Below, piece after piece: positions 933 to 29,804 of a DNA stretch of 64,000 bases; within the stretch, counting starts at the first letter, position 1; each line of letters opens with the position of its first letter. Both the position numbers and the translations under genes were made by a program. Source of the DNA: Chloroflexota bacterium (GTDB lineage Bacteria; Chloroflexota; Anaerolineae; JAAEKA01); assembly GCA_034717495.1 (NCBI GenBank), contig JAYELL010000031.1, positions 19,669 to 83,668 on the forward strand, given 5' to 3'. The notes under the pieces are model-generated. The model saw nothing but the letters and a program-made list of their open reading frames with translations. It was not told the DNA's origin and searched no databases.

Positions 933-939
933 GCGGCGG

Positions 940-1745
940 TCGGTATTCGGTAAACGGTATTCGGTAATCCGATGGGATTCGACACGGTTCTGGATCGGGT
1001 TACCGATTACTGGTCACGGATGACCTGAAGCGGTGGCCGGTAAACGGTAAACGGTAATCGGTAATCGGTATTCGGTAATCCGATGGGATTCGACGCGGTT
1101 CCGGATCGGGTTACCGATTACTGGTCACGGATGACCTGAAGCGGTGGCCGGTAAACGGTAATCGGTAATCGGTATTCGGTAATCCGATGGGATTCGACGC
1201 GGTTCCGGATCGGGTTACCGATTACTGGTCACGGATGACCTGAAGCGGTAATCGGTATTCGGTAATCCGATGGGATTCGACACGGTTCTGGATCGGATTA
1301 CGGATTACCGGTCACGGGTTACCCTTCCGGTGTTCGGTAAACGGTATTCGGTAATCCGATGGGATTCGACACGGTTCCGGATCGGATTACGGATTACCGG
1401 TCACGGGTTACCCTTCCGGTGTTCGGTAATCCGATGGGATTCGACACGGTTCTGGATCGGATTACGGATTACCGGTCACGGGTTACCCTTCCGGTGTTCG
1501 GTAATCCGATGGGATTCGACACGGTTCTGGATCGGATTACGGATTACCGGTCACGGGTTACCCTTCCGGTGTTCGGTAAACGGTGTTCGGTAATCCGATG
1601 GGATTCGACACGGTTCCGGATCGGATTACCGGTTACCGGTCACGGGTTACCCTTCCGGTAAACGGTATTCGGTAATCCGATGGGATTCGACGCGGTTCCG
1701 GATCGGGTTACCGGTTACCGGTCACGGATGACCCGAAGCGGCGGT
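940..1745. repeat. Nine-copy tandem array of a 75-111 bp hairpin-containing unit
   Basis: Core GGTAATCCGATGGGATTCGAC[A/G]CGGTTC[T/C]GGATCGG starts at 963, 1074, 1178, 1261, 1350, 1425, 1500, 1589 and 1671. Two unit variants: A (copies 1-3 and 9, ...GTTACCGATTACTGGTCACGGATGACCTGAAGCGG) and B (copies 4-8, ...ATTACGGATTACCGGTCACGGGTTACCCTTCCGGTGTTC). Length differences come from a variable number of CGGTAWW heptamers between units. Each unit can form a 10-11 bp stem (GTAATCCGAT / ATCGG[A/G]TTAC) with a 20-nt loop. Lies between convergent genes ending at 932 and 1765. Confidence 0.95.
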
Positions 1746-1764
1746 CCTCGGTTGGCGGTCAACC

Positions 1765-4700: not shown

Positions 4701-7700
4701 CAGCCTCGACCCGTACCGTGTACACGCCGGTCAACGGCGCCTGGATCCAGACGTTCTCCACGTTGTTGAGATCATCGTCCACCGCACCGGTGGCGCTCCA
4801 GCCGTTGCTGCCGAAGCGGTTGCCATACCAGGTAGTGCCATTGGGGGCCACCACGCGCAGGTCCAGGTCGTTGACACGGGCCGGATTGGCGCCAGCAGCT
4901 CCAGGTGCATCGGACCAGACCAGGGTGATGCGCAGTGGCTGGCCGGTGTCGTTGACCTCGATCTCTCGGCTCCAGCTCTGGCCGCTGGCGGTCAACAGAT
5001 CGGGATTCTGATAGTATTGCACAGCAACCTCAGGGTTGAGCATCCGGTCCAGGTTGGCGCGGCCCCAGCCCTGATGGTCATCAGGCCGGCTACCCATGAC
5101 ATTGCCCCAGCCGTCGTCGCCGCCGGCCAGGTCGTCGGTGGTGTTGACCAGCGCTGCCTTGACCATGGAAGGCATGGGATTGATGCTGGTGTCGTTGCGA
5201 AGCCGCCAGAACTCGGTGAAGAGCGCCGCCGCGCCAGCCATGGCCGGCGACGACATGCTGGTGCCCGAGCAGTAGGAATGTTGTGTGGAATTGCCCGGGG
5301 ACGTAGCGCAGGTGATGTCGATCTGGCCGCCAGCCGTGACCACCCGGTTTTCCGTGCTGATGATGTAGGCGCCTGGTGCCATGATATTGGGCAGCAGGCG
5401 GCCATCGATGGCAGGTCCCCGGCTGCTGGAGGAACGCAGGGAGTCGATATCGCCGGTCAAACCCCCGGCCATATCGGACCGCCGGCTAAGACTGTTGCCG
5501 GTGACGATCAGGTTTTTGGCCTCCTTGGGTTCGGTGATCGAGCTCATGCAGGGACCGGGACAGTCGTCACCCGAGTTGCCGGCGGAGAAGACCGTCAAAA
5601 ACAGGTCGCGCACGTTGCCGTTATCGTCGATAGCATCCAAAACGTAGTCGTCCAGGTTGGCAGCATTGAGGGTGTAGCCGGCACCGTAGTTCCCGATGGT
5701 CCAGGAGTTGTTGCTCAGGTCCGCGTTGTCGGCCGAGTCGTAGACCCGCTGATAGATGGAAACATCGGCGGGACGATCCTCGGCAATGGCATCCTGGGCG
5801 TGCAGGGTGGCGCCGGGCGCAATGCCCAGGCCATAAACGAAGCCATCGCCGTCGGCTGTAGCCGAGCCTCCGTCACCGGCCACAATACCGGCCACGTGGG
5901 TGCCATGCCCGGATCCCCTGCCATTATGGTTCAGATCTGGCGCGCCGTCCGATCCCGGCTCGCCTGGCTCGCTGTAGCCACCGTAGTCGGTGCCGGACAC
6001 CACGTTGAGATCAGGATGATCCCAATCAACTCCGGTGTCTACCACTGCCACAGTTACCTCCCTGCCGCGATAACCGGTGGCGTCCAGCCAGTCGGCGTAA
6101 CCTGTCTCAGGTTCGCCGCCTGGCGCGTTGTCAGCGATAATCTGGTTGGACCGTTCATCGTCGATCTCGGAGGGGAACTGCAGGTCAACGACGATGGTCT
6201 GGGCCAGCCGCGCCAGGTCGATAACCCGATCGGCCGCCAGGCTGAATTCAAGGACTGCCATCTGTCCCTGCTCGCCCATGACATGCCGGGGTGCCCTGGT
6301 GAAGATCTCTCCTCCCCAGGAAGCGATTGCCTGTTCCACCTCGGCCAGTCGACCGTCGTCGTAGAAAAGGGCCTGGAGAAAGGGCAGCGTTTCGTCGCCG
6401 GCCAGACTGCGCGCTTCGTTCAGCCTCCCGGTTATTCTATATGCCGTATGAAACTCGCCTGTCCAGCGCACGTTTGGCCATTCCAGCGCGCGATGGAGGT
6501 CCCGCGGACTGCTCCAGAGCAGAAACGCGTTGAAGGGGAAATATTGAAGGATCACCCCTGTCGCCTGCAGCCAGTCGATGTCTTGCTCAGTGGCCGGCGC
6601 CCGCAGTTGGACCAGGAAGAGTCCCTCGCCTTCTGGATTGCGGGCTGACCCATGCAGCAGATCGGTGGAACTGACAGGCTCTCCATCCCGTACCGGATCG
6701 AAGGAGAAGCGGTCGAAGCTGATGACTGCCATGTTTTCGACCTGGTCGAAGGCAACGTCTGATCCGGCAAGCCGGTCAAAGGCCGCCTGATCAAGATCGA
6801 GCCAAAGGTAGGCAGGGTAGACCACCGAGCGAAGCAGGCCGTCAGACAGGTCCACCTGGGCCAGCTTTGCCAGTTCCGAGCGGTCGATGCGTACGCTGTG
6901 GCTCAGCCTTGCAGTGAGTTCGTCCGGATCGAATTCCGCGCCGGTTGGCAGGACATTGGTGACGCCAGGGACATCATAGGGCCGGACCTCGTAATCGATA
7001 TCCCGGGAGAAACCGCTGTCGCAGTGATCGACGGCGGGCGAGTCGCGTCGGATGTGGTAGTTGCCATTGGCGGGGTCGAGGAATTGGGGATCTTGCACTT
7101 CGTTCTTGTTGCCAGGGAAATCCACTTGCAGAATAGAGCAATCGATGGTGGTGTCGCCCGGGCCGGCCACCAGGGCACTACCGGTGTTGTCCCAGACAAC
7201 CAGGGCATCCGCGTCGAGCCGGGCCGATGTGTTGATTCCGAAGGCTCCCTCCGAGTGTCCACTATTTCCCGCCACCGTGCTGCTGCGAACCCAGGCTGTG
7301 GGCGCGCCGCCTGCGAAGTTATGGAGCCTGAAGGCATAATCGCTGCCGGCGTGGCCACCGGTCAGCATGGCGCTGTCCACGAGTACTCTCGTGCCGTCGC
7401 CGCGGCCGTAGATGCCGCTGCCCAGGCTGCCTGCCTGATTGCCCTCCACATACACCGACTCCAGGTCCAACTTGGCGCCGGCGGCGACAAAGGCACCGCC
7501 GCCGTGGGCGCTGGTCGACGTGTTGTCATTCAACTGGGCACATCTGGCCTCGCCACAGAAATAGGCATCGCTGCTGTCCAGGTCGACGGTGGTGCCCGAG
7601 CCGGTGCCGTAGACACCGCCGCCACTGCTGCCGGAAGTGTTTTCGTTGATCGCTCCATTGTCTACCCATACATCGCTGCCGCTGGCAAGGTAGAGGCCGC

Positions 7701-9183
7701 CGCCGTACGTGGTCGCCCGATTTCCCGCCACGCGGGCTTTGCCACCTCTAAGATCGATTCGGCTGGCGTTGATCGCGTAGACGCCGCCGCCGTTGCTGGC
7801 GCTGTTGTCGATGACTCCCGCCATGGAGGCGCCCGAATTGCCATCCAGGAGGAGATCGCAGTTGTCCAGATAGAGACCGCCGCCGTTGCCGTCCGCGTCG
7901 TTGCCAAAGGACGCGAAGAGCCAGAATCCGATGAAGGAGTCGCCCCTCACTTCGATAGAGGAATCGCTGCAGTAGACCCCTCCCCCGTCCCCGGTAGAGG
8001 TGTTTTTCAGCAATCCCGATTGGTCGTCCAGGATCAATGTCGTATCGGGCTCCATGAAGACGCCGCCGCCCTGATCGGAGGTATTCTCGCTGACCGTTGT
8101 GCGCTGCAGTTCGACCTGATGGCCATCGCTCAGTTCGATTCCACCCCCGTGGTTGGAGTCGGTCTCGCCGCCGGTGATCTGGAACAGATCGATGATCACG
8201 CTCACCGATCCAGGGGTGCCGCCATAGATCTCAAAGATACTATCGCCCTGACCAGTGCCATCCAGCACGGTGGCACTCGTTCCCTGGGTCGTGCAGGTGC
8301 TGTCATATCCACCTTTGATGGTCAACGATTTACTGTTGATATTGACGGTGGCGGCGCTTCCGGTATAGGTGCGGCCCTCTACCCGGATGATGTCACCGGA
8401 GTTGGCGGCATCGACCGCAGACTGGAGCGTCGAATAGGTGCAACTGTCGCCCACCGTGCGAACTGCCTGGGGACCCCGGTAATCCGGATCGCCGGCAGGG
8501 GTATTCGACTCCTCGACCGCCGGTTGGGAGACCAGGGCCAGGAGTCGACTGGCAGCTTCCTGTTGTATCAGATCTGAACGCCTGGCCTCATCCTCGATGG
8601 CCTGTTGCAGTTCGAGTTCAGCGGAAACTGGACCCTGGGAAACTATCTGCGATCGTTCAGGCGGGGGAAGCGTGGCGCGGGCAAACCGGGCCACCTGGAA
8701 CAACCTGATCAGGGGAATCTCCTCAACGATATCCGCAAATGCCTGCCAGTCGCGGGCGCTGTGGGCCGCTTCGATTCGATCCCAGAGTGGATCCTGCTGG
8801 CTGTGCGCCGGGACTGCCCTTTCATCGGGGGTTCGCTGGGTTTCGGGGTTGTCGGTCTCGCCTGATTCGGGCGGTCTGGCAAATGTGCGACGCTGGTTCT
8901 TGGCGGCCAGTGCCTCCAGGTGAGCCGGCCATTCGTCGGCCAGTTGCCGATCGATATCCTCTGCCGGTACCCCAGCGTCGAGCATTTCCTGGACCAATTG
9001 GGGATCAAGGTCTCCTGGGGCCGGCAAATTCGTGACGGCTGAATCGGGCCCCTGTTGCGGGGCCTGCGCAGGTGTTGAGGCTGCGCCAGCGCCCAGCGGG
9101 GCGACCAGGGATGCAAGCAACGAAAACAGGACGAGCCAGACGAGCAACTGAGAACTTCTGTGTTTGCGCGTGCGCGTCGACAT
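1765..9183 (-). CDS. Giant secreted multidomain protein: beta-helix (Pmp-like GGGxY repeats), internal subtilase S8 with P-domain, second beta-helix block, C-terminal dockerin-like module
   Basis: 2472-aa ORF. Signal-like N-terminus MSTRTRKHRSSQLLVWLVLFSLLASLVAPLGAGAAS. About 20 GGG[IVL][YF] repeats in two blocks, each ending in a DP(Q/L)F...G(N/D)Y(H/R)...SPA(V/I)D cap typical of right-handed parallel beta-helices. Subtilase motifs lie in the middle and a dockerin-like end at the C-terminus. Confidence 0.9.
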   Translation of the reverse strand: MSTRTRKHRSSQLLVWLVLFSLLASLVAPLGAGAASTPAQAPQQGPDSAVTNLPAPGDLDPQLVQEMLDAGVPAEDIDRQLADEWPAHLEALAAKNQRRTFARPPESGETDNPETQRTPDERAVPAHSQQDPLWDRIEAAHSARDWQAFADIVEEIPLIRLFQVARFARATLPPPERSQIVSQGPVSAELELQQAIEDEARRSDLIQQEAASRLLALVSQPAVEESNTPAGDPDYRGPQAVRTVGDSCTYSTLQSAVDAANSGDIIRVEGRTYTGSAATVNINSKSLTIKGGYDSTCTTQGTSATVLDGTGQGDSIFEIYGGTPGSVSVIIDLFQITGGETDSNHGGGIELSDGHQVELQRTTVSENTSDQGGGVFMEPDTTLILDDQSGLLKNTSTGDGGGVYCSDSSIEVRGDSFIGFWLFASFGNDADGNGGGLYLDNCDLLLDGNSGASMAGVIDNSASNGGGVYAINASRIDLRGGKARVAGNRATTYGGGLYLASGSDVWVDNGAINENTSGSSGGGVYGTGSGTTVDLDSSDAYFCGEARCAQLNDNTSTSAHGGGAFVAAGAKLDLESVYVEGNQAGSLGSGIYGRGDGTRVLVDSAMLTGGHAGSDYAFRLHNFAGGAPTAWVRSSTVAGNSGHSEGAFGINTSARLDADALVVWDNTGSALVAGPGDTTIDCSILQVDFPGNKNEVQDPQFLDPANGNYHIRRDSPAVDHCDSGFSRDIDYEVRPYDVPGVTNVLPTGAEFDPDELTARLSHSVRIDRSELAKLAQVDLSDGLLRSVVYPAYLWLDLDQAAFDRLAGSDVAFDQVENMAVISFDRFSFDPVRDGEPVSSTDLLHGSARNPEGEGLFLVQLRAPATEQDIDWLQATGVILQYFPFNAFLLWSSPRDLHRALEWPNVRWTGEFHTAYRITGRLNEARSLAGDETLPFLQALFYDDGRLAEVEQAIASWGGEIFTRAPRHVMGEQGQMAVLEFSLAADRVIDLARLAQTIVVDLQFPSEIDDERSNQIIADNAPGGEPETGYADWLDATGYRGREVTVAVVDTGVDWDHPDLNVVSGTDYGGYSEPGEPGSDGAPDLNHNGRGSGHGTHVAGIVAGDGGSATADGDGFVYGLGIAPGATLHAQDAIAEDRPADVSIYQRVYDSADNADLSNNSWTIGNYGAGYTLNAANLDDYVLDAIDDNGNVRDLFLTVFSAGNSGDDCPGPCMSSITEPKEAKNLIVTGNSLSRRSDMAGGLTGDIDSLRSSSSRGPAIDGRLLPNIMAPGAYIISTENRVVTAGGQIDITCATSPGNSTQHSYCSGTSMSSPAMAGAAALFTEFWRLRNDTSINPMPSMVKAALVNTTDDLAGGDDGWGNVMGSRPDDHQGWGRANLDRMLNPEVAVQYYQNPDLLTASGQSWSREIEVNDTGQPLRITLVWSDAPGAAGANPARVNDLDLRVVAPNGTTWYGNRFGSNGWSATGAVDDDLNNVENVWIQAPLTGVYTVRVEAEFINGDAYYFNGDPTDQHFSLVCYNCEERISGDYDAGADEAYAFVGLNGALCQYNTITGAIAAASPGDTIYIAPGTYPEVLGTIDTDLTLTAATGDCLSDSTGGVTIDANDVDRVAYVAPNTDVTLANLRLTDGTNPLGGILYVDSGSTVILDNTDLTYGSASNKGGGLRVYTTGTVELINGSKIEQNVTTGSGDGSGVALQDATLIMRNDSRVGDYLDPNESADLGGGVYMDGGELQMHDTSRIRSNVAANDGGGVYAFDGADVSLYDSADIGYVFETANNDAVNGGGIFLTDPGTTLAMYGVSGVQHNFASYRGGGIYVAGGASVTISSSLVADNEATDRGGGIFVEGESPPVEGDGNAPAAGPTVTIQNGSHIDNNLTGDLGGGIYILDDNADVSVDDSSVDNNVASGYFGAIRLWGQSTLTIHSGASLSYNWANGVSGGGLGIGKGSANLNNAVLQYNQAAHMGGAISQTGGELVILDSDIRWNEAGSHGGGIYNLDGTLRVEAVNQPGYVGVNQAGGNGGGIYYDNSNTLELRALSDYRLQINSNTAQANGGGIFASGGGLVDSWGWLQMGSNQADNHGGGIYLDGGATLWLDDENNTRIPEIWTNTALTGNGGGIYALDSASVRVEGAQIGGAVNGNEAPAGDGGGIYLDDSDLFMANTLVRNNQAGDNGGGIAAENGSGIQISSTMPAPVEAPPASPTNRVLVPVICDPSALPADHYCTEFRTNDAGDKGGAIHMEGESTGLVSHAAFLGNTASQASAVELYDSILALENSLIRDNVASGINDSTVHLYDVGGVGPSAELHALHNTFADNISHAVYFAAGTSGTFDNNIVWNNGSFGIITPLATAACNDTQGGALTGPGNISEDPLFTATPRGDYRLGVGSPAIDACPGGDSPDLDNVARPAGSDYDMGAFEVACIAGMTDVNGSGSVDIVDIQLVAGDFNNPAYTMAHDVDCDGDVDVNDIQIVASDWTP
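1768..1944 (-). other. Dockerin-like C-terminal module of the giant ORF
   Basis: Two EF-hand-like loops: DVNGSGSVDIVDIQLVAGDF and DVDCDGDVDVNDIQIVASDW. This matches the duplicated DxNxDGxxxxxD pattern of type I dockerins. Confidence 0.6.
4990..6060 (-). other. Subtilisin-like S8 peptidase catalytic domain inside the giant ORF
   Basis: Catalytic triad motifs read on the minus strand: VAVVDTG (Asp codon 6037-6039), GHGTHVAG (His codon 5896-5898), GTSMSSPAMAG (Ser codon 5257-5259). Followed (4690-4990) by a P-domain-like segment LRITLVWSDAPG...YTVRVEAEF. Confidence 0.85.
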
Positions 9184-9277
9184 GATGTTTTGGTCCTCCT
9201 TGATGCGGATACACCGGCGATTTGATCGAGCCGGAAGACGCTTGGCGGTGCGGATACGGCGAAAGATATTTTGTTTT

Positions 9278-9424
9278 GGTAAAGGTTACTACTCAGTCTC
9301 GGCAGGAAAATGACTTGTTTGCGCTCAGATCAACCACAGATTGCACAGATGTTTTTGTTTGAATCTGTGTCAATCAGCGAAATCTGTGGAAAAACTGAGA
9401 CTGTCTGAGCAGTTACTGGTAAAG
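9278..9424. repeat. Composite nested palindrome in the 5' region of the giant gene
   Basis: Nested inverted repeats: CCACAGATT (9334-9342) / AATCTGTGG (9381-9389); CACAGAT (9344-9350) / ATCTGTG (9363-9369). Outer imperfect arms GGTAAAGGTTACTACTCAGTCTC (9279-9300) versus GAGACTGTCTGAGCAGTTACTGGTAAAG (9397-9424). Confidence 0.7.
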
Positions 9425-10051: not shown

Positions 10052-10294
10052 TCGTGTCCAAGCAAGGGGTACGCCACCTTCAGCATGACATCGATAAGGC
10101 CCAAGTCTTGTTGTAGTACCAAGGAGGGTGCAACGAATCACAGGAGGTTGTCAGCGCAGGTTCAGGCCTGCCTGTTGCCATCGGAGAGCTGTTTTTTTTC
10201 AATCGTGCATGTCCGTGATAAAATGGCGGTAGTTGTTGATACCAGGCAACCTGCCTTGTGTACGCCTGAAGTTTCTGTCGAAAAAGAGAGATTG

Positions 10295-10972
10295 ATGAAC
10301 TCGATTGAGAATAGCAGTTTCGGTATGGGGGCTGAGGAATCCGCAGCCGATACCCCAATTACAGCGCAGGAGGACTTCGTCAACGGCGTGTATTCCCTGG
10401 TGGATGAAGCGACGGCATTCGAAATGGATCGGCTGCGAAGCGAAGATGGCATTATTCCAAGCTGTGGATTGGGCTGTTCTCACTGCTGCCGGTTTCATAT
10501 CCTTACGAACATTGCAGAGGCCCACGCCCTGGCGCAATACATCAAGCGGGAATTTTCAGGTGACCAGATTGACGACCTTCGGATGCGAACGCAACAATGG
10601 CATGCCTGGGACAATTCCAGGCCGGGAAGATATCCGCCGGTCAACATCGACGAGCAGATCGATCTTTCCGACTATGACCATTGCTGCCCTCTGCTGGTAA
10701 ATGGCGCATGCAGCGCCTATCCTGTGAGGCCGGTCGCCTGTCGAACGCATTTTGTCTCTTCGCACCCCCTATCCTGCGCCGCAGCAAACGATCCGGAATC
10801 TACAGAAGACCCTCCGGTGGTACTCATGTCTTTTGTGACGGCGACAGGTCCGTTGTCAAGGACAATAGGGGATTATATCGAAAACGAAGGCCTGGATTTC
10901 TCCCGATCAACAATGCTTCTTCCGCATTGGTTGGCGATTGCAATGGGTTGGGAGTTCGCCATATCGCCGTGA
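10295..10972 (+). CDS. YkgJ/UPF0153-family Fe-S (zinc/iron-chelating CxxCxxCC-type) protein
   Basis: Motifs CGLGCSHCC and CCPLLVNGACSAYPVRPVACRTHF match the PF03692-type cysteine pattern. ORF track start 10085 is probably too far upstream. ATG 10295 (MNSIENSS...) is chosen, with ATG 10223 as an alternative. Confidence 0.6.
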   Translation: MNSIENSSFGMGAEESAADTPITAQEDFVNGVYSLVDEATAFEMDRLRSEDGIIPSCGLGCSHCCRFHILTNIAEAHALAQYIKREFSGDQIDDLRMRTQQWHAWDNSRPGRYPPVNIDEQIDLSDYDHCCPLLVNGACSAYPVRPVACRTHFVSSHPLSCAAANDPESTEDPPVVLMSFVTATGPLSRTIGDYIENEGLDFSRSTMLLPHWLAIAMGWEFAISP

Positions 10973-11056: not shown

Positions 11057-13531
11057 CTACTCCTGGAGTTTCATTCGTCGCAGCCGCAGCGAGTTGCCTA
11101 CCACAAACACGGAGCTGAAGGCCATGGCCGCCGCGGCGATCATCGGATTTAGCCGGTATTGCGGGCCGAGAATGGGTACCAGAACACCGGCAGCGATCGG
11201 AATGGCCAGTATGTTGTAGAAAAAGGCCCAGAACAGGTTTTGTTTGATTCCCCTCATAGTGCGCTGGCTCAACCGGATCGCCTGGGGAACGCTGCGAAGA
11301 TCACCCCGCATGAGCACGATGTCGGCGGTCTCGATGGCAACGTCGGTGCCGGTGCCAATGGCCATCCCTATATCGGCCTGGGCCAGTGCAGGCGCGTCGT
11401 TGATCCCATCCCCCACCATGGCGATCAGAGGAAAATGATCTGTTTCCGAACTTGCGACCTGCGACTCGCGATCTGCGACTTGTAAACGCTTCACCTCTGC
11501 CGCTTTGTCCGCGGGCAGTACTTCGGCCACGACGCGGTCGACGCCCACCTGCCGGGCAATGGCGTCGGCAGTTCGCTGGTTATCTCCGGTTAGCATGACG
11601 ACTTCGATACCCATTTCGTGCAGTTGGTGGATGGCTTCCGTGGAGGTGTCTTTGACCGTGTCTGCAACGGCGATGATACCCTGCGCCTTGCCGTCCACGG
11701 CCACCACCATGGCTGTCTTGGCTTGCGCTTGAAGTTGCAATACCTGCTCACCCAATCCATTGAGCTCAACCTGGTGATCGATCATCAATCGCGGGCTGCC
11801 CACAAAGACCTGATGGCCATCGACGGAAGCTCGAATACCGCCTCCGACAATCGCCTGAAACTCTTCCGGAACCGATAGGCTGACCTGCTTCTGTTGAGCC
11901 AACGCGACAATGGCCTGTCCCAGGGGATGCTCGGACACGCTTTCGGCCGAGGCAGCCAGTTGCAGCAGTTCATCTTCCGACAGGGTGCTTTGAACCACAT
12001 CGGTGACCTGTGGTTCACCCGCTGTAATGGTGCCCGTCTTGTCCAGGGCCACGGTCTTCACTTTGGCGGCCGTCTCCAATACTTCGGCGTTTTTGATGAG
12101 GATACCGTTTTCGGCACCAACCCCTGTGCCTGCCATGACAGCCGTCGGCGTTGCCAGTCCCAACGCACAGGGGCAGGAAATCAACAACACCGATACGGAG
12201 AACAGCAGGGCGGTCGTGAAACCGACACCGCCAATGAAGTACCAGGCCAGGAAAACCAGCAAGGAGAGGATAATGACGGCGGGCACAAAGATGGCGGCCA
12301 CCTGATCTGCCAGTCGCTGGATGGGCGCCTTGGAGCCCTGGGCTTCCTGAACCATGCGCACGATCTGGGCCAACGCGGTATCCCGGCCAACCCGGGTTGC
12401 CTCGAAGCGAAAGCTGCCGCTCTTGTTGATTGTGGAGCCGATGACTTCATCGCCAGGACCTTTTTCACTTGGCAGGCTTTCACCGGTTACCATGCTCTCG
12501 TCCACAGCGGACTGACCGCTGAGGATGATGCCATCCACCGGGATCTTTTCGCCAGGTCGGACAATGACCGTGTCGCCGACTACGACCTCGTCTACAGGTA
12601 CCTCTCTCTCTTCGCTGTCGCGTACAACGCGCGCCGATCGGGCCTGCAAGCTGAGTAGCTTTCGGATCGAGTTGCCTGCCTGGGTTTTGGCTCGGGATTC
12701 AAGATACTTGCCTACCGAGATCAAGGTAATGATCATGGCGGACGACTCGAAATAGAGGTGGCTATCCAGGCCGAGTACCAACACGGCCAAACTGTAGAAA
12801 AACGCAGCCAGCGACCCCATGGTCACCAGGGTATCCATGTTGGCCGTTCGGTTTTTGGCCGCCTTCCAGGCACTGCGCAGGAATGGCTCACCCACCCAGA
12901 ACTGCACGGGAATGGTCAATGCCAAAAGCAACCAACCCCGACCCGGGAAATCGGGGATGAAGCCCAGATCAACGCCCATGCTCAGGATCATGATGATCGA
13001 CGTGAGCACGATGCCTATGGTCAGTCGCCTTTTTCGATCCTGCAGCTCGGCCTGGCGGGCCCGCAGTTCGGCGTCCATGGCGGTCTCACCCAAACCAGCT
13101 TCCGGCTCAATGACCTTGTAGCCGATCTCGCCAATCAACAGTTTCATGTCGCCCACACTGACCTGACTGGGCAGATAGCTCACATGGGCCGTTTCATTGG
13201 CAAAGTTGACGTTGGCCTCCAGGACCCCATCCATGCGCCTGAGATTGCGCTCCACGGTTGCAGAGCAATTGGTACAGGTCATGCCCGCGATGGGCAGGTC
13301 CACTGTGGCCTCGGCAATGCCGTAGCCGATCTCTTCGATGGTTTCCATCATCGCCGGCGGAGCGATGACCGAAGGATCGTAGATGATTTCTGCCCGCTCG
13401 TTGGCAAAGTTAACGTTTGCTTCCAGAATGCCGTCCATGCGCTTCAGATTGCGCGCCACGGTATTGGAACAATTGGTACACGTCATTCCGGTTACCGGAA
13501 TGCTGAGGCGTTTGGTGTCTGGTGTAGTCAT
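11057..13531 (-). CDS. copA: Copper-translocating P1B-type ATPase
   Basis: Two N-terminal HMA domains (GMTCTNCS twice), CPC transmembrane motif ([11 protein letters not shown]), DKTGT phosphorylation site and the GDGINDAP hinge. 824 aa. Confidence 0.95.
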
Positions 13532-13575: not shown

Positions 13576-14049
13576 TTATGGTGCGTAGCTGGAGAAGATA
13601 TCGGTATGGCCCGAGGAATCGAAGGTGAGCACGTCATAGGGCTGATCCTCGTATCCTTCAACTTCCATGCCGGGTGACCCGATGGGCATAGCGGGCACGG
13701 TCAGTCCAGCGACATCCGGCCGTTCGGCCAAAAGGCGTTCGATGTCTTCGACCGGCACGTGGCCCTCGATGACGTAGCCATCGACGATGGCTGTATGGCA
13801 AGACTGGAGGTTTTTCGGTACCTGATAGCGCTCTTTGATGCCCGTCATATCAGAGACATCTTCGATCTGAACGGCATACTCATTGTTCTCCAGGTACTCG
13901 ATCCAGTCGCCGCAGCAACCTCAGGTGGGTGCCCTGAACACCGTGACGACAGGGGCTTCTTTCTGGGGGGCTTCCTGCACCGGTGCCGGTGCGGCGCAGC
14001 CCACGATCAGTAAGGAGACGACAACGCCCAAAAGAATGACTGGTCTCAT
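13576..14049 (-). CDS. copG: DUF411/CopG-family periplasmic copper protein (lipoprotein) with in-frame TGA at codon 43 (candidate Sec, or pseudogene)
   Basis: Minus-strand reading from ATG 14049 (SD AGGAG 9 nt upstream) gives MRPVILLGVVVSLLIVGCAAPAPVQEAPQKEAPVVTVFRAPT-TGA-GCCGDWIEYLENNEYAVQIEDVSDMTGIKERY..., continuing into track ORF 13576-13848 in the same frame. TGA occupies 13921-13923. Downstream motifs SCHTAIVDGYVIEGHVP and MPIGSPGME are DUF411 hallmarks. Confidence 0.7.
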
Positions 14050-14073
14050 GGTATTATACTCCTGTGGTGTTCG

Positions 14074-14280
14074 TCAGTTCGACGGTGGATAACCAATCTC
14101 GACCAGCATGGCCTGAACCGCGGGCAGCGTTTCCTCGCTGTCAGCTTCAACCAGGACAGTCTTGGTGGCCTCGCTGGCCTTGACGGATTGAACGCCATCC
14201 ACGAATTTCAGCTCGCGCTCGATGGTTTTGACGCAATGGCCACAGCTGATAGCCGGCACTGTGTAAGTCTTGGTAGTCAT
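14074..14280 (-). CDS. copZ: Copper chaperone, HMA domain
   Basis: MTTKTYTVPAISCGHCVKTIE... carries the CxxC metal-binding motif. 68 aa from ATG 14280 with SD GGAGA upstream. The track start 14349 is an upstream extension. Confidence 0.85.
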   Translation of the reverse strand: MTTKTYTVPAISCGHCVKTIERELKFVDGVQSVKASEATKTVLVEADSEETLPAVQAMLVEIGYPPSN

Positions 14281-14317
14281 TTCTGTTTCTCCTGCAGTTC
14301 TTTTGATAGAGGGAAAG

Positions 14318-14599
14318 TCACATTTTCCCGGTTTCATGGAAAACGCCAACGATTTCGTCGATCATCCGCTCGCGTTCGTCTGCGTCGTCGCCGCGGATGG
14401 CGGTGGTGACGCAAGTGTTCAGATGATTCTCAAGGACCATGGCGCTGACGCCTTCCAGCGCTTTTTGCACTGCATGGATCTGTCGCATGACATCGATGCA
14501 ATATTTGTCCTCCTCGACCATGCGTTGAATGCCGCGGACATGCCCTTCAATGCTCTTGAGCCGATTGATAACCACACGCTCTTGATCGGAATCCATCAT
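14318..14599 (-). CDS. csoR: CsoR-family copper-sensing transcriptional repressor
   Basis: RLKSIEGHVRGIQRMVEEDKYCIDVMRQIHAV...ENHLNTC carries the C-H-C ligand signature of CsoR/RcnR (DUF156). Start MMDSDQ at 14599 or 14596, with SD AGAGGA upstream. Confidence 0.85.
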   Translation of the reverse strand: MMDSDQERVVINRLKSIEGHVRGIQRMVEEDKYCIDVMRQIHAVQKALEGVSAMVLENHLNTCVTTAIRGDDADERERMIDEIVGVFHETGKM

Positions 14600-14626
14600 G
14601 GCAGATCCATCCTCTTCTTTGATCTC

Positions 14627-14658
14627 GGACCCCGCCCCCCGGGGGGGAGGGGTGGTCC
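14627..14658 (-). promoter_or_regulatory. G/C-tract palindrome, candidate CsoR operator
   Basis: GGACCCCGCCCCCCGGGGGGGAGGGGTGGTCC. The inner 25 nt (14629-14653) are a palindrome with one mismatch. It lies between the -10 box and the csoR start. Known CsoR operators are C-tract/G-tract pseudo-palindromes. Confidence 0.6.
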
Positions 14659-14660
14659 AC

Positions 14661-14690
14661 ACTATACCACGCATCCGGAAAGGTTGTCAA
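14661..14690 (-). promoter_or_regulatory. Sigma70-type promoter of the csoR-copZ-copG-copA operon
   Basis: Minus strand reads TTGACA (14690-14685), an 18-nt spacer, then TATAGT (14666-14661), immediately upstream of the palindrome. Confidence 0.6.
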
Positions 14691-14916: not shown

Positions 14917-15702
14917 TTATTGCGCCGAGATGATGGGCAGGTAGAGGGGTTGGGGGATGGCTGCGAAATCCTCTACCAGTTGGAGTTCGCCGTCGGCCTG
15001 GTTCCAGGTGGCATTGCCGGCCCAGATCATGTGAAGATCGTAGTAGCCACCCGTGTCGTCGTCGTGCAAACCCAAGCTAAAGGCCATGGTTTTTCCTGCC
15101 ACCAATGGCGCATTGACACCATAGAGATCCTCGGCCGCAATTCGCACCTCGACATCCCAACCGTCAGGAACCACTGACGTTCCCACTTCGATGGGCACCG
15201 GCGTAGCTGGGATACCGAAATCGGACTTTCGCCCGTCGGCATTGACGGTGTACTGGTGGTCGTCGCCCCCGCCCGGTATCCCGTCGAAGGCGCCGATGAA
15301 CGCCAGCTCGATCTCGTCATCCCACCATACCAGTTCGCTGTCGTTGACGATGACATCGTCATCGATATGGAGGCCAAAGAACAGGTCGGTGCCGGACCAC
15401 ATGGCCCACTGATAGACACTGGCATCGGCCGGTTCCGGCGGCGGATCGCTGTCAGGTTCTACCCGTACGAAGTCGGCGGTGTCCTTGTCCATGTACAGAT
15501 GGGGAAAGAGTCCCCAGTCGCTCAGATCCCCGTCGATTACCGGGGTCTCAACCGCCTGGAAGGCCTGGGCCGGGGGTTGCGCAGATAGAACCGGCGCGCG
15601 ATCTCCCGGTATGTCGACTCCGGGCTGGGCACCCATGGAGATGGTGGCAGTCAGGGTCAAGAGAATTGTGATCAACAGAAATGCAATAGCCAAGGGTTTC
15701 AT
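14917..15702 (-). CDS. Secreted CBM9/DOMON-like carbohydrate-binding domain protein
   Basis: Signal peptide MKPLAIAFLLITILLTLTATISMGA. IDGDLSDW...LFFGLHIDDD...DDEIELAF pattern typical of CBM9-like domains. SD TAGGAG upstream. C-terminus is ...PQPLYLPIISAQ. Confidence 0.6.
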   Translation of the reverse strand: MKPLAIAFLLITILLTLTATISMGAQPGVDIPGDRAPVLSAQPPAQAFQAVETPVIDGDLSDWGLFPHLYMDKDTADFVRVEPDSDPPPEPADASVYQWAMWSGTDLFFGLHIDDDVIVNDSELVWWDDEIELAFIGAFDGIPGGGDDHQYTVNADGRKSDFGIPATPVPIEVGTSVVPDGWDVEVRIAAEDLYGVNAPLVAGKTMAFSLGLHDDDTGGYYDLHMIWAGNATWNQADGELQLVEDFAAIPQPLYLPIISAQ

Positions 15703-15879: not shown

Positions 15880-18800
15880 TTATCGGAGCAGGAGTGGCAG
15901 AAAGATATTCAGCGGCTGCGGAGTCGGTGTCGCGACTGGCGTAGGAGTTGGCGTGCGTGTGACTGTCGCCGTGGGGCTGGCAGTTTGGGTAGCTGTCGCT
16001 GTCGGTGTGTAGGTCGGACCTGGCGTCGAAGTCGACGTGTGTGTTGGCGATGGCGTTCCGGTCGCCGTCGGTGTGTTTGTTGCCCCGGAAGCGCCCGGCA
16101 TGTCATTAACCAGTTGCGCTCTGTCACTAAGCTGGCTACCGTCTCCTTCGCCACTCACCTCTGCCATGTTGACGATGCGGGCAGGTCCGGCAGGTGAGTC
16201 GACATAAATGGCTGCCGAATAGTTTTCGTTTGCACTGAGAGTTCCCAATGACCAGGTGAGGGTATTGCCTGTCACGTTGGTTGGCGGGGGATTTGAATAT
16301 TGGTAGACGAGCTCCAGAGGCAGCATGTCGGTTAAGATAGTGTTTTGCACCGCCTGCCCGGTCATGTTCCGCACTTGCAGCCGGTAGGTGATCGCCTCTC
16401 CTGAAACTGGTGTTTGCAGATCCTTTTCCAGGCTCAGGCGACAGGCCTCGTCGTTGCTCTCACGGTAATGAACGGTGTTGAGCCACAGCTGAAAATCGGG
16501 GTTGCCTGGTTCGCACAGCTCAGAATCTCGGGTATTCAGAGACCACAGGCCGAGCGTTGTCAGGCTTTCCGGCAGGGGACCACTTAAATCGGTATCGGAG
16601 AGGTGCAGTCTTCGGAGGGCGCCCAGGTCTGCCAGCGATGCAGGCAACGGTCCACCGACGGCATTGTGGTCCAGGTAAAGACCCGATAGCTTGCCCAGGC
16701 TGCCCAGAGACTCCGGAATCGTGCCCGACAATTCGTTATGGTGCAGCGCCAGCGCGCGCAACCCGGACAGGTCGCCGAGGGCGGCGGGAAGGGCGTGATC
16801 CAACTGATTGTGTTCCAGGTTCAGCAACTCCAGGTTCGAAAGCTGGCCCAGCTCTGCCGGAAGAGCTCCTTCCAACCGGTTGTTGTCCAGATGAAACCCC
16901 CGCAGGGCCGCCAGGTTGCCAACGGTGGACGGTAAAGGGCCGGAAAGCTGATTGTTGCCAAGATAAAGATATTCGAGGCGGCTCAGGTTTCCCAGGCTGT
17001 CCGGCAAGGGCCCCACAAGTTGGTTGCCCTGGATCGAAAGGTGGCGCAGGCGGGTCAGATCGCCCAAAGAATCGGGCAGCTGTTCCGAAAGTTCGTTGTG
17101 CCCCAGCCACAGGCTTTCCAGGTTGACCAGGCCACCAATCCAATCTGGAATGGATCCCATCAACTGATTGCGGGAAAGGAAAAGATGCTGCAGATAGGGC
17201 AGGTAGATCAGGGACGGGGGCATCGGTCCGGTCAGGCGGTTCTCGGCAAGCTCCAGGGCCTGCAGGTTACCCAGGTATTGCAGCGTGTGGGGAACACTCT
17301 GGAGCAGGTTGGTGCGGACATCGAGCCATTGAAGGTTGTGCAGGTTGCCAAGGGCTTCTGGCAGGGCAGAAAACTGGTTGTAGTGCAGGTCCAGTCGCTG
17401 TAGATTGCCCAGATAGCCGATGGTCGGTGGCAATGTCTGCGTCAGTTGCCGTCCCGCCAGGCTCAGACCGGTCACGGCACAGCGAGTCTGGTCCGGCAGC
17501 ATGACCAGGTCGACGTAATAGTCGAAACCAGCCAGTCCATAGCCGTCCAGGATGCCCTGGATGGTCGGTTGATCGACGGCCTCGTAGGAGCAGGCATGGT
17601 AGGTTAGCCGCAGGTCAAGCTGTGTCCCTGGCGACCCGGGCCGGCGGGCCACCTCCAGATAATAGGTTTCACCCGCGGTCATGCCCAGGTTCAGATTGGA
17701 GGTTCCGGACCACCAGCCTGCATTGTCGTTGCATCCCCGGGCGGTCAGTTCACCTCGTTGACCCTGCCAGGCGGCCACGACGGTGTCGAAATCGCTGCCG
17801 ACGGTGTTGGCCGTGATGAAGCCTGAGTCTGGCGCCACAAAACGGTACCAGACAGTGAGCTCGTTTTGCCCCTCTCCGCAAGCCATGTCAGGATCATCGG
17901 CTGCCATGGTTGCGGCGGAGATATCGAGCGATGATTCATAGGGAAACGCGTCGATGACGATCGCGTCGTCGAAGTCGTCGTTTACCGGCGGCGATTCGAG
18001 GCCATGTCTCTCCACCTGCCTGGATTTTGCCAGACTGCCAGCATCGGTTTCGACCTTGCTCACCTCCACGAAGCTGATCCACTCGTCACCATCGCCCCGA
18101 CTGCGGATTCGGAAATCGTAGCCGTCCAGGCCACCTGAGAACTTTGCATCGGGGAGAAGAAAGCTGGCTTCTTTCCAGTCATCCCGATTGGTTTTCTGGA
18201 CCACTCCGGCCACTTTGAAACTGTTGTCCAGGGCATCATATTGCAGATCCCAACTATCGTTTCCCGCGTTGCGATATATGATGGAGACGCTCACCGGTTG
18301 GGAGCTTGCGCCGTCGAAAAATGCCTCATCCACGTCAAAAAACATATCCGGATTGCCATGGTTCAGATCGGTACGCCGCGTATATCGTCCCCAGGGGTGG
18401 TCGGTGACCTGCCATTCAGGGATGGTGCGGCCTCCCGGTGCATCGTCCTCCTGGGTCAACCAGAAGTCATAGTTGCCCCATTGGGGATACCAACGTGATG
18501 AGCCGCCTGGCTCAGGTGGCGCTGCCTCGCGCAGGGCCACCCACACGCCTGGCGTTGAGTCGACATCCACACCGGCATAACGATCGGCCAGGCGCAGGGC
18601 CCATTGCCGGACGGGGTCCTCGGTGCGAAGCGTATTCTTGCCGATCAACAGGTAGCTGGGATGCTTGTTCATGCCGTTGAGCAGGCTCCACAACAGGTCG
18701 CTGCCCTCCGGATGATAGACCGATTCAGCTTCCCAGCCCATGGGCACCTGTCCGGCGTGTTCGAGCATGGGGTCGTACTGGCCTGTGCGGCAGACATCGG

Positions 18801-19776
18801 GATGAATGGTTGCCGTGTCCGATCGAATCACCTGGTCGTCGTGATCGTCCACCAGCCGGTTGTGTTTCAGGCCCACGCCGACGCTGGCGGCGTAGTCAGT
18901 GTTGTCGCGCCGTTCCTTTCGATAGAGATACCAGGGGGCATATTGGGTCAGCAGTGGTTTTTCGTGCCAGTGTCTGCGGTATATGTCGACGATGCGGTTG
19001 AGGGTTTCCACCCACACCTCGCTGGTCAGCCCCGTGCTTTGAAGACACTGGTCCAACTCACTGTCCAGTTCGGAGGGCGCGGTCTCCCCGTAAATGCCTG
19101 TACTGACTTCGACAAAGGCTACGCGGGGATCGTCCCGATAGCGTTCAGCAGCAGCCCGTATGAAGTTCTCGAAGGCGGTCAGGTAGGCATCCTCCCAATA
19201 CATGGGAATATCTTCCTGATGGAAACCCTGCGTGTCGGTCCAGCTACAGGAAACGAAGCCATCACCATCAGGCCAGGCGCCCTGTTCCGCCTGGAACCAC
19301 CAGGGGGTCTGGTTGCCACCGCAGCAGGTACCCTCGTAGGTATTGAAGGCCAGACCAACGGTTTTCCCCAGGTCGGCCTCGACCGCGATCCATTGATCGA
19401 CAGGGTCCCACAGGTACTCGCCTTCGGCCTGATTCTCGATGTTGCGCCAGGTAAAGACAGTGTGCCCACCGCGAAGCCAGGGGTATTGGTCAGGATCCAA
19501 ATGGGGCCAATCGAAGAACCCATAGAGACCGGCATCGGGAAAGGCACGGTAGCTGCTGGCGGGTGGCGCTTCCCAGGCAGGACAGTCGTTCTCGGGCGCC
19601 TGGTCATGCGCGATGTTCATTGGACCAGTTGCGGCGTTTGGCTCCATTGGGGCATCAGGCAGGTCGGCGCGGGCATCAACCGAAGGGATCACGAGTGTTG
19701 TCAACCCGCCGGCGATCAAGAGAGCAATCCCAATCAAAATTGCAACCGGCATTAGAGTTGGTAGCCTTTGCTTCAT
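15880..19776 (-). CDS. Large secreted multidomain protein: TIM-barrel glycoside-hydrolase-like N-domain, PPC domain, 12 plant-type LRRs, DUF11 repeat, Thr/Pro tail
   Basis: N-terminal TM/signal MKQRLPTLMPVAILIGIALLIAGGL (ATG 19776; the track start 19800 is TTG). Twelve 24-aa repeats of the type LxxLxLxxNxLxGxLPxxLGxL (about 16560-17470). DUF11-like LQVRNMTGQAVQNTILTDMLP (about 16200-16500). TP-rich tail, then ...PQPLNIFLPLLLR at the end. Confidence 0.8.
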   Translation of the reverse strand: MKQRLPTLMPVAILIGIALLIAGGLTTLVIPSVDARADLPDAPMEPNAATGPMNIAHDQAPENDCPAWEAPPASSYRAFPDAGLYGFFDWPHLDPDQYPWLRGGHTVFTWRNIENQAEGEYLWDPVDQWIAVEADLGKTVGLAFNTYEGTCCGGNQTPWWFQAEQGAWPDGDGFVSCSWTDTQGFHQEDIPMYWEDAYLTAFENFIRAAAERYRDDPRVAFVEVSTGIYGETAPSELDSELDQCLQSTGLTSEVWVETLNRIVDIYRRHWHEKPLLTQYAPWYLYRKERRDNTDYAASVGVGLKHNRLVDDHDDQVIRSDTATIHPDVCRTGQYDPMLEHAGQVPMGWEAESVYHPEGSDLLWSLLNGMNKHPSYLLIGKNTLRTEDPVRQWALRLADRYAGVDVDSTPGVWVALREAAPPEPGGSSRWYPQWGNYDFWLTQEDDAPGGRTIPEWQVTDHPWGRYTRRTDLNHGNPDMFFDVDEAFFDGASSQPVSVSIIYRNAGNDSWDLQYDALDNSFKVAGVVQKTNRDDWKEASFLLPDAKFSGGLDGYDFRIRSRGDGDEWISFVEVSKVETDAGSLAKSRQVERHGLESPPVNDDFDDAIVIDAFPYESSLDISAATMAADDPDMACGEGQNELTVWYRFVAPDSGFITANTVGSDFDTVVAAWQGQRGELTARGCNDNAGWWSGTSNLNLGMTAGETYYLEVARRPGSPGTQLDLRLTYHACSYEAVDQPTIQGILDGYGLAGFDYYVDLVMLPDQTRCAVTGLSLAGRQLTQTLPPTIGYLGNLQRLDLHYNQFSALPEALGNLHNLQWLDVRTNLLQSVPHTLQYLGNLQALELAENRLTGPMPPSLIYLPYLQHLFLSRNQLMGSIPDWIGGLVNLESLWLGHNELSEQLPDSLGDLTRLRHLSIQGNQLVGPLPDSLGNLSRLEYLYLGNNQLSGPLPSTVGNLAALRGFHLDNNRLEGALPAELGQLSNLELLNLEHNQLDHALPAALGDLSGLRALALHHNELSGTIPESLGSLGKLSGLYLDHNAVGGPLPASLADLGALRRLHLSDTDLSGPLPESLTTLGLWSLNTRDSELCEPGNPDFQLWLNTVHYRESNDEACRLSLEKDLQTPVSGEAITYRLQVRNMTGQAVQNTILTDMLPLELVYQYSNPPPTNVTGNTLTWSLGTLSANENYSAAIYVDSPAGPARIVNMAEVSGEGDGSQLSDRAQLVNDMPGASGATNTPTATGTPSPTHTSTSTPGPTYTPTATATQTASPTATVTRTPTPTPVATPTPQPLNIFLPLLLR

Positions 19777-19813
19777 CGAGAGAAATCCTGGCCTTGACAA
19801 GGCAACTTTCGAT

Positions 19814-20722: not shown

Positions 20723-21247
20723 ATGGGACTTGAGACAAAACTTGGCAGCGATGATGGCATTGTCGTAACATCGCTGGAGAGCATGGTCAACTGGAGCCGG
20801 TCCAACTCGGTCTGGCCTCTATTGTTCGGTCTGGCTTGCTGTGCCATCGAGATGATCGCCAGCGGTACTTCCCGCTACGACATCTCCCGCTTTGGCTCCG
20901 AGCTCTTCAGGGCGTCACCCAGGCAGGCTGACTTGATGATCGTATCGGGCCGGGTCAGCAACAAGATGGCGCCCGTTATCAAGAGGCTGCACGATCAGAT
21001 GCTCGAACCCAAATGGGTGATCGCGATGGGAATCTGTGCCAGCGCGGGCGGTCCCTTTAACAACTACGCGATCGTGCAGGGCGTAGACAAGATCATCCCG
21101 GTGGATGTCTACGTGCCCGGTTGCCCTCCTCGCCCGGAAGCACTCTTCGAGGGATTGATGCTGCTGCAGAGAAAAATCAAGGGTGAGAAGTTCAGCGATT
21201 ACGAGATACAATACATGGAAGCGGCCAGGGGCCGCCAGATGGGTTAG
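20723..21247 (+). CDS. nuoB: NADH-quinone oxidoreductase subunit B
   Basis: [18 protein letters not shown] and GCPPRPEAL, the N2 cluster cysteine motifs. Confidence 0.95.
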
Positions 21248-21275
21248 TACACGCTTGTTTTGATGGACTGGATGA

Positions 21276-23099: not shown

Positions 23100-23115
23100 A
23101 TCGAACTGGCAAGAC

Positions 23116-25059: not shown

Positions 25060-25067
25060 TTCGTGAT

Positions 25068-27686: not shown

Positions 27687-27688
27687 CA

Positions 27689-28717: not shown

Positions 28718-28760
28718 GCAACGGTCTGAGTAGTGAACGAATCGTTTTCACTGTGGAGTG

Positions 28761-29240
28761 ATGATGTCTGGACTTGGTGATGTTGTAAAAGGTGCAGCCC
28801 AAATCGCGCAGGCCATGGGTGTTACGCTGAAATATGCAACCAGGCGGCCCGTGACTCTCGAATATCCTGAAGAGCCGATGGCGGTGTTCCCGCGCTATCG
28901 AGGCCAACACATGTTGCGCCGCTATGACAACGGTCTGGAACGCTGTATCGGTTGTTGTCTCTGTGAAGCTGCCTGTCCAACGGGCGCCATTCTGGTAGAA
29001 GCCGCCGAAAATGATCCCGGGAACCCGCGATCGCCCGGTGAACGTTACGCCAAAACCTACGAAGTTAACCTGTTGCGCTGTGTATTCTGTGGTGACTGCG
29101 AGATAGCCTGTCCGACCGAGGCCATCGTTCTCACTCAGTCGGTGCCGATGCCACAGCGAAACCGGGCAAACTTCATATTGACCCAGGATGTGCTCCTTGA
29201 ACCCAAGGATGCGAACCTGGTTATCCGTCCTGATTCGTGA
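28761..29240 (+). CDS. nuoI: NADH-quinone oxidoreductase subunit I
   Basis: Two ferredoxin-type motifs, CIGCCLCEAACP and CVFCGDCEIACP. Confidence 0.92.
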   Translation: MMSGLGDVVKGAAQIAQAMGVTLKYATRRPVTLEYPEEPMAVFPRYRGQHMLRRYDNGLERCIGCCLCEAACPTGAILVEAAENDPGNPRSPGERYAKTYEVNLLRCVFCGDCEIACPTEAIVLTQSVPMPQRNRANFILTQDVLLEPKDANLVIRPDS

Positions 29241-29792: not shown

Positions 29793-29804
29793 AATGTCTG
29801 AATA

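Follow-up and report, generated by a model that had tools for sequence, protein, structure and literature searches.

A gene on the minus strand of a 64,000-nucleotide stretch of Chloroflexota DNA (contig JAYELL010000031.1; the whole stretch is called the window here) very probably encodes a full-length CopG in which UGA at 13923..13921 is read as selenocysteine (Sec), so that the C-x-C-C motif of the DUF411/CopG family would become U-G-C-C. This reading of the nucleotide sequence is favoured because more than 130 other assemblies keep TGA at the same copper-binding cysteine. Selenocysteine had already been proposed for this codon by an earlier reader who saw the letters of the window alone (the sequence-only reading), and the proposal is now supported by the conservation of the TGA, by intact reading frames and by purifying selection on both flanks. 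The predicted product would be a membrane-anchored, extracytoplasmic CopG-type copper protein of ~157 residues before signal cleavage.

The copG start codon is ATG at 14049..14047 of the minus strand, and AGGAG at 14063..14059 precedes it with a spacer of 9 nt. A single frame then runs through MRPVILLGVVVSLLIVGC... with its lipobox, ...APVVTVFRAPT, the TGA and GCCGDWIEYL... to TAA at 13578..13576; the 90-aa open reading frame (ORF) at 13576..13848 is the tail of this frame. Start codon, Shine-Dalgarno sequence, signal, TGA, 90-aa tail and DUF411 motifs all lie where the sequence-only reading had placed them. With Cys put at the TGA, the protein matches DUF411/CopG (PF04214) in Pfam with 97.1 bits (gathering cutoff 27, E = 4.9e-28). 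It also matches the Pseudomonas aeruginosa CopG structures 6WIS and 6WJE over residues 34–155 (E = 1.5e-30), and in that alignment the TGA pairs with the first Cys of CGCC. The column is Cys in 34 of 34 full-length homologs aligned, which bears out the earlier claim that the stop falls exactly on the conserved Cys of CxCC. In the same alignment the window protein retains 24 of the 24 invariant columns, and its motifs comprise U-G-C-C (with the TGA first), SCHT, EGHVP and MPIGSPGME. An export signal, consisting of a hydrophobic N-terminus and the lipobox IVGC, was recognised by eye and is joined to the domain only if the TGA is translated; the homologs possess the same N-terminal signal, with Cys at the lipobox position. 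The TGA at the first Cys of the copper-cluster motif is thus the sole defect of an otherwise intact gene.

Protein databases are unable to show TGA forms because gene callers stop at TGA, and DNA was searched directly instead. In a pattern scan, degenerate DNA for P-T-TGA-G-C-C-x-x-W was sought in one genome per GTDB species, and each match was translated in its surroundings. The scan yielded at least 120 loci, at least 108 of which are DUF411 genes with TGA at exactly this codon. At least 103 TGA-form genes are complete in the fetched block, with the signal peptide upstream and the whole domain downstream; 12 of the listed loci are chance matches. An unbiased scan of metagenome contigs used as its query only the 110 residues downstream of the motif. 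Of its best 80 loci, 35 have TGC at the column, 27 have TGA and 17 have TGT (one of these TGT calls, L135, is out of register), and one locus is cut off, which makes 27 TGA versus 52 TGY (n = 79); the seven closest of these relatives (57–67% identity) are TGA in seven of seven cases. The sequence-only reading had asked whether other genomes have Cys or TGA at this column, and both scans answer that TGA recurs there.

Altogether, the two scans give at least 129 complete TGA-form orthologs in at least eight phyla. Besides the window, the assemblies that carry the TGA form (more than 130) are genomes and metagenome contigs from many projects and technologies, including complete chromosomes and one isolate. 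According to the record titles, with a taxonomy check, the carriers are Chloroflexota (at least 33; Caldilineae, Anaerolineae and Ardenticatenia/Promineifilaceae), Acidobacteriota (at least 30, of which at least 18 are Vicinamibacterales), Gemmatimonadota (at least 22), Rokubacteria/Methylomirabilota (at least 7), Beta/Gammaproteobacteria (at least 6), Deltaproteobacteria (at least 4), Binatia (at least 2) and Tectomicrobia (at least 1), with two of unclear label among the matches listed. One carrier, Helicobacter brantae MIT 04-9366, is a cultured isolate. With 4 conserved Cys codons in 157, a stop placed at random would fall on one of them with a probability of ~2.5%, and chance cannot explain the recurrence of TGA in the same column of at least 129 complete orthologs. 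In a joint alignment of 398 sequences, the two nearest relatives of the window (71% and 68% identity) are both TGA forms, and the codon state of the nearest neighbour is concordant for ~95% of the sequences, a figure to which the sampling scheme contributes. Cys forms at 63–67% identity are nearly as near to the window as the nearest Sec forms, and the closest annotated proteins are all Cys forms with at most 67% identity. Variants of the motif also occur among the TGA forms, namely U-D-C-C, U-S-C-C and S-P-G-U-G-C-C (L129, L131, L161, L145 and L163), the last having Gly for the usual Thr before the Sec codon.

Both flanks of the TGA are, to judge from codon evolution, translated in one frame. 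In 26 independent pairs of TGA-form genes, the ratio of nonsynonymous to synonymous change (pN/pS) is 0.33 over the 12 codons that precede the TGA, 0.28 over codons 1–20 after it and 0.22 over codons 21–100. The codon right after the TGA uses all four third bases and always encodes Gly among the matches listed. Since both flanks are under purifying selection and none of the 20 codons that follow the TGA in the window is ATG, GTG or TTG, translation in a single frame across the TGA is indicated. The sequence-only reading had also considered gene decay, which would appear as additional frameshifts in close relatives; the intact frames and the selection on both flanks speak against this. A genome-wide reassignment of TGA is excluded as well, because TGA is an ordinary terminator: it is the commonest stop in the window (13 of 27 annotated genes) and ends 40 of 104 DUF411 genes themselves among the matches listed.

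How the UGA might be decoded was approached through the bacterial selenocysteine insertion sequence (bSECIS). The published model has a loop of 3–9 nt, an upper stem of 4–16 bp, G in the first two loop positions, a UGA–loop spacing of 16–37 nt and a minimum free energy (MFE) of at most -7.5 kcal/mol (PMC13188914). Most lineages of TGA-form genes possess a hairpin of this canonical type. Its two arms are the codons of x-x-Trp-Val and those of His-Leu-x-x, and they enclose a loop of 3 nt that starts at a distance of 21 nt from the UGA and opens with G in 79 of 103 genes among the matches listed. The canonical stem has 7–12 bp and the energy of the whole hairpin goes down to -27 kcal/mol, as in L018 (10 bp) and L005 (12 bp), both at about that value. 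Among the matches listed, 76 of 97 canonical-type Sec forms (78%) pass the bSECIS criteria versus 17 of 45 Cys forms (38%; Fisher p = 3.9e-6). Among the matches listed, pair 18–34 is formed in 62% of Sec versus 25% of Cys forms, pair 17–35 in 41% versus 7% and pair 21–31 in 98% versus 64%, each with several pair types. The inner 5–6 bp are shared with Cys forms because the amino acids dictate them, and the stem is extended in the Sec forms. The canonical hairpin is also present in three Anaerolineae members (L041, L106 and L113). Global folding energy is a poor discriminator between Sec and Cys forms (p = 0.07 and 0.65), and synonymous-recoding z-scores are weak even for clear canonical hairpins, because conserved residues encode most of the stem. 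The Rfam SECIS models matched nothing in the window and nothing in a canonical-type locus.

The window belongs to a subgroup with the signature U-G-C-C-G-D-W-I/V-x-Y/H-L/M, here called Chloroflexota-type, and several results weigh against selenocysteine here. The sequence-only reading had suggested running a bacterial SECIS model downstream of the UGA; no hairpin in the window meets the published one. In the 70 nt that follow the UGA, folding is no better than in shuffled sequences (z = +0.98), and the remnant of the canonical register is unstable (+1.9 kcal/mol). Across the subgroup, the bSECIS criteria are passed by 5 of 32 members among the matches listed (16%), below the Cys controls, and Chloroflexota-type Sec forms fold equally to same-clade Cys forms over every interval tested. 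Neither selA, selB, selD nor the gene of tRNA-Sec was found in the 64-kb window or in the 200 fetched loci. The closest relative has 71% identity, so the TGA of the window itself rests on one assembly, and for every member of the family the incorporation of selenium is read from sequence. The missing hairpin weakens the case for selenocysteine in the window and does not overturn it, because ~12.6% of accepted bacterial selenoprotein genes likewise lack a canonical SECIS (BSepDB; PMC13188914) and, according to a review, distinct classes of bacterial SECIS must exist that are uncharacterised (PMC13188914). An element that fits the published model is therefore usual in bacterial selenoprotein genes but not obligatory.

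Several other structures were considered for the Chloroflexota-type genes. The hairpin drawn by the sequence-only reading does form on paper (+4..+19, 13920..13905, -7.6 kcal/mol), but it cannot be a SECIS because its loop begins 6 nt after the UGA, where 16–37 nt are needed; it is also absent from the MFE fold and is not kept in relatives. A synonymous-recoding signal at +45..+91 (z about -0.9) was traced to Gln-Val and Asp-Leu codons that are complementary to each other. Trp, Tyr-Leu, Gln-Val and Leu-Gln codons make up a longer stem at +19..+119, and the 150-nt fold of the window has z = -2.6; this stem was rejected as a SECIS, given that 15 same-clade Cys forms (nine genes fetched from the clade and six metagenome Cys forms) fold equally well (p = 0.32–0.99). 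Equal folding in these controls indicates that the Chloroflexota-type structures are by-products of conserved protein motifs. Two synonymous positions differ between the forms. At +12 (window 13912, third base of the second Cys codon of CC), U is found in 21 of 30 Sec versus 2 of 9 Cys forms, and at +117 (window 13807, third base of the Leu codon in LQSCHT), C or U is found in 27 of 30 versus 3 of 9. The Sec set includes L056, L003, L049 and L117, and the Cys controls are few and non-independent; these differences could be an RNA-level constraint or a phylogenetic artefact and are only a hint.

The absence of sel genes carries no information, given that 64 kb make up only a small part of a genome. 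ARAGORN detected no tRNA of any kind in the window, nor a tRNA-Sec anywhere in the fetched loci (1.4 Mb). Pfam recognised no sel gene among 30 further window genes, which include a nuo operon, a glutamate synthase, a sialic-acid utilisation cluster and two giant surface proteins. A tblastn search with Escherichia coli SelA, SelB and SelD against the window and all loci gave only one weak match to a GTPase domain. A SelD candidate beside the H. brantae gene has AIRS and AIRS_C domains and is PurM (TIGR00878, 385 bits). At the level of phyla, Chloroflexi, Acidobacteria and Epsilon-, Beta- and Deltaproteobacteria are all documented to include Sec-decoding members (PMC1794560, PMC5322559).

Could the TGA instead be a fresh lesion in a Cys-coded gene? 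A TGC or TGT that had recently mutated to TGA would leave a young pseudogene resembling the Sec forms, and the change needs a single transversion. The nearly equal closeness of Cys forms (63–67% identity), the lack of a recognisable SECIS in the window and Glu at residue 57, where at least 90% of homologs have Gly, are all in keeping with this. The stop would nevertheless have had to strike the one codon that is naturally TGA in about one third of relatives and in seven of the seven closest (best 80 loci), while sparing everything else: there is no further stop and no frameshift, the 24 invariant residues are kept, and Shine-Dalgarno sequence, signal peptide and operon are intact. Residue 57 is Asp, Asn, His or Lys in other intact members, and a canonical SECIS is also absent in 27 of 32 Chloroflexota-type TGA members among the matches listed, so its absence does not single out the window. 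A nonsense mutation is consequently considered quite improbable. A sequencing or assembly error, by which the true base at 13921 would be C or T and the gene an ordinary Cys-form CopG, has in its favour that the window apparently comes from a metagenome-type contig in one assembly; a substitution falling on this very codon and giving the state of more than 130 other assemblies is very improbable, and we regard such an error as hardly credible.

Among the explanations that accept translation of the codon, UGA in the Chloroflexota-type subgroup might be recoded to something other than Sec, either by a Cys tRNA that reads UGA or by near-cognate read-through. In a few bacteria, selC-like tRNAs are described that recode UGA to Cys. 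Such recoding would account for the absent canonical SECIS, for the 16% of the subgroup that pass the bSECIS criteria among the matches listed and for the lack of a Sec-specific folding signal relative to same-clade Cys forms. On the other hand, the recoded site corresponds to a Cys with a redox or metal-binding role, as is characteristic of Sec/Cys pairs, and clear SECIS hairpins occur in other phyla and in Anaerolineae L041, L106 and L113; the BSepDB proportion quoted above shows that accepted selenoprotein genes may also lack one, and Chloroflexi are known Sec users (PMC1794560, PMC5322559). General read-through is unlikely because TGA is a frequent genuine terminator in the window. Recoding to another residue is accordingly thought improbable. 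It is scarcely credible, finally, that the gene is split, with a first peptide of 42 residues ending at the TGA and a separate C-terminal product (90 or 108 aa) beginning at an internal start. There is an ATG at 13848, and public gene calls do begin after the TGA (P0001, 108 aa; P0121–P0123, 81–109 aa). The resulting product, however, would lack both the signal peptide and the CxCC motif, which define CopG function (PMC7558416), and the 20 codons between the TGA and a plausible restart, which hold no ATG, GTG or TTG in the window, are under purifying selection (pN/pS 0.28) and encode the conserved GCCxxW with free synonymous variation.

With UGA read as Sec, a role in copper handling can be proposed from the neighbours of the gene. 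The genes of CsoR, an HMA chaperone and a P1B-type ATPase lie on the same strand as copG; the chaperone ORF (14349..14074) extends mechanically to a TTG at 14349, and its likely start is the ATG at 14280. CopG-like proteins are described in PMC7558416, which cites Hausrath et al. 2020, as periplasmic proteins with a thioredoxin-like fold that bind a tetranuclear Cu cluster via CxCC and two methionines and contribute to copper resistance under anaerobic conditions; either oxidation of Cu(I) or the transfer of copper to other proteins is proposed there as their function. A lipoprotein encoded between copZ and copA under CsoR is in keeping with a part in dealing with Cu(I) once it has been exported, on the outer side of the membrane. 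In the mechanism that we propose, rising Cu(I) would cause CsoR to release the operon, CopZ would pass Cu(I) to CopA for export, and the lipoprotein CopG(U), anchored on the outward side of the membrane, would capture the copper in its thioredoxin-like site, which in P. aeruginosa CopG holds the tetranuclear cluster, and either oxidise it or hand it on, a selenolate standing in place of one thiolate. Selenolates differ from thiolates in their lower pKa, in their greater softness as ligands and in the greater ease with which they are re-reduced. Decoding would presumably take place via SelB, Sec-tRNA(Sec) and an mRNA element 3' of the UGA, which in most lineages would be the Trp-Val/His-Leu hairpin with its G-first 3-nt loop.

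The csoR-copZ-copG-copA context described by the sequence-only reading was confirmed in the window by Pfam, but it is not a trait of the family: CopA lies within the fetched block at 11 of 128 Sec-form loci among the matches listed, and the neighbours in five sampled loci are unrelated housekeeping genes. No Sec forms of neighbouring HMA or CopA proteins were found. At L101 (Gemmatimonadales UBA6960), the CopA beside a TGA-form DUF411 is interrupted in frame by a stop at a position that is not Cys (..RSIQ*AQGAL..), which is probably a pseudogene or an assembly error and not a Sec candidate. In the same-clade Cys form L204 (11–472, plus strand), DUF411 is directly downstream of a small cupredoxin-like protein, a copper context unlike that of the window.

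Table 1. Features of the copper locus in the window.
Feature	Position	Strand	Basis
csoR, copper-sensing transcriptional repressor, first gene of the operon	14318..14674	-	Pfam Trns_repr_metal, 99.3 bits
copZ-like HMA copper chaperone with normal CGHC motif	14074..14280	-	Pfam HMA, 54.9 bits
Shine-Dalgarno AGGAG, 9 nt before copG start	14059..14063	-	direct reading
Lipoprotein signal peptide with lipobox (MRPVILLGVVVSLLIVGC)	13996..14049	-	translation, homologs
Linker and first beta-strand (..APVVTVFRAPT) before the motif	13924..13995	-	translation, alignment, pN/pS 0.33
In-frame TGA, proposed selenocysteine codon (CxCC to UGCC)	13921..13923	-	alignment, 6WIS/6WJE, orthologs
Rest of CopG/DUF411 domain (GCCGDW...SCHT...EGHVP...MPIGSPGME...), TAA 13578..13576	13576..13920	-	Pfam, 6WIS/6WJE, pN/pS 0.28 and 0.22
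Hairpin GGUUGC-UGCG-GCGACU of the sequence-only reading	13905..13920	-	-7.6 kcal/mol; too near UGA for SECIS
Degenerate remnant of canonical SECIS register (+18..+34, loop CGAGU)	13890..13906	-	+1.9 kcal/mol, unstable
copA, P1B-type ATPase for copper export, two HMA domains at the N-terminus, last in the operon	11057..13531	-	Pfam E1-E2_ATPase, Hydrolase, HMA x2

Other parts of the window hold several conspicuous genes. Convergent with copA past its 3' end, a 295-aa Cys-rich ORF at 10085–10972 (plus strand; ..CGLGCSHCCRF..CPLLVNGACSAYPVRPVACR..) has no Pfam match and may encode a metal-binding or Fe-S protein with a link to the copper locus. A secreted protein of 2472 aa (1765–9183, minus strand) has many right-handed beta-helix-like Gly/Asp-rich repeats, with an embedded subtilisin-type signature (DTGVD...GHGTHVAG...GTSMSSP) and a dockerin-like C-terminus. 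The 1306-aa protein at 15880–19800 (minus strand) has a long leucine-rich-repeat block and a Thr/Pro-rich C-terminal tail, and adjoins a 261-aa secreted CBM9-like protein (14917–15702). The complex I (nuo) operon at 20723–35234 (plus strand) encodes a fused NuoC-NuoD (607 aa) and a fused NuoE-NuoF (658 aa). At 56829–62279 (plus strand), a BNR sialidase-like protein, a DHDPS-family (N-acetylneuraminate lyase-like) enzyme and an ABC sugar transporter are encoded together, which suggests a sialic-acid utilisation cluster.

DUF411/CopG appears to be undescribed so far as a selenoprotein family. The table of prokaryotic selenoprotein families in a May 2026 review has no entry for DUF411, PF04214, CopG or UxCC (PMC13188914), no DUF411 selenoprotein family is given in a 2022 review, in deep-Sep or in the main text of BSepDB, and NCBIfam has no model matching the window protein, all of which agrees with the sequence-only reading, which did not take DUF411 for an established selenoprotein family. 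No literature pairing DUF411 or CopG with selenocysteine was found in a search outside which subscription literature and database tables lay. In the protein database the window gene exists only as a 108-aa fragment starting after the TGA (P0001), and the H. brantae gene has no full-length NCBI protein; the Helicobacter-group calls of 81–109 aa (P0121–P0123) come from other sources. TGA-form DUF411 genes are thus subject to a systematic annotation error, being called as fragments of 81–109 aa or dropped.

Taking the family as a whole, we think it rather likely that these genes form an uncatalogued DUF411/CopG selenoprotein branch with a selenolate in an extracellular multinuclear Cu cluster, and that its Chloroflexota sub-branch, to which the window belongs, inserts Sec without a canonical SECIS, which would point to a distinct class of SECIS or SelB recognition. 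With the same degree of assurance, the branch would be spread over soil, sediment and wastewater lineages (Vicinamibacterales, Gemmatimonadota, Rokubacteria, Chloroflexota and others) and the cultured Helicobacter. The bacterial selenoproteome would thereby gain a widespread family in phyla with little-studied selenium use, and direct testing is possible since one carrier is culturable. If the reading is true, it means a natural selenium ligation of a multinuclear copper site in an exported copper-resistance protein, and selenium availability would be tied to copper tolerance. The Sec and Cys forms would offer a natural pair for comparing the cluster chemistry of Cu-Se and Cu-S, and the ~30 Chloroflexota orthologs with a conserved Sec-UGA and no canonical SECIS are material for defining the "distinct classes" of SECIS.

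A comparison with known systems places the window protein closest to P. aeruginosa CopG (6WIS, 6WJE), to which it is homologous and with which it shares x-G-C-C-x-x-W, SCHT, EGHVP and MPxGSPGME. Like the CopG-like proteins described in PMC7558416, it is exported and linked to copA. The two differ in that the first cluster ligand is Cys-coded in P. aeruginosa and TGA (predicted Sec) in the window, and in that the reference is a soluble periplasmic protein of a Gram-negative pco/cus/cueO cluster, whereas the window gene encodes a lipoprotein in a Chloroflexota-type csoR-copZ-copG-copA operon. With respect to the bSECIS, whose archetype is E. coli fdhF, the hairpins of CopG genes outside Chloroflexota meet all published constraints, whereas the window and most Chloroflexota-type genes fall outside the model. 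Metal-handling selenoproteins are already known, including an E1-E2 ATPase (UxxC), CopZ-family 2Fe-2S proteins (GxUC, CU), the SO_0444 Cu/Zn efflux transporter (UxC) and MerT-like and mercuric-reductase-like proteins (PMC13188914). As proposed for CopG in the window, they have Sec for Cys in the metal-binding motif of a metal-resistance protein, and Sec and Cys forms coexist; their folds and families are unrelated to DUF411. The thioredoxin-fold selenoproteins (thioredoxin-like Sec.1/Sec.2, DsbA-like, Prx-like and ArsC-like; UxxC/CxxU) do share the thioredoxin-like fold with CopG, and in both the Sec, predicted in the case of CopG, stands at the N-terminal active-site Cys position after beta-strand 1 and derives from a redox-active Cys. 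They use a dithiol redox pair for disulfide exchange, whereas the three-thiol(ate) U-x-C-C of the window CopG would bind a cluster and serve in copper handling.

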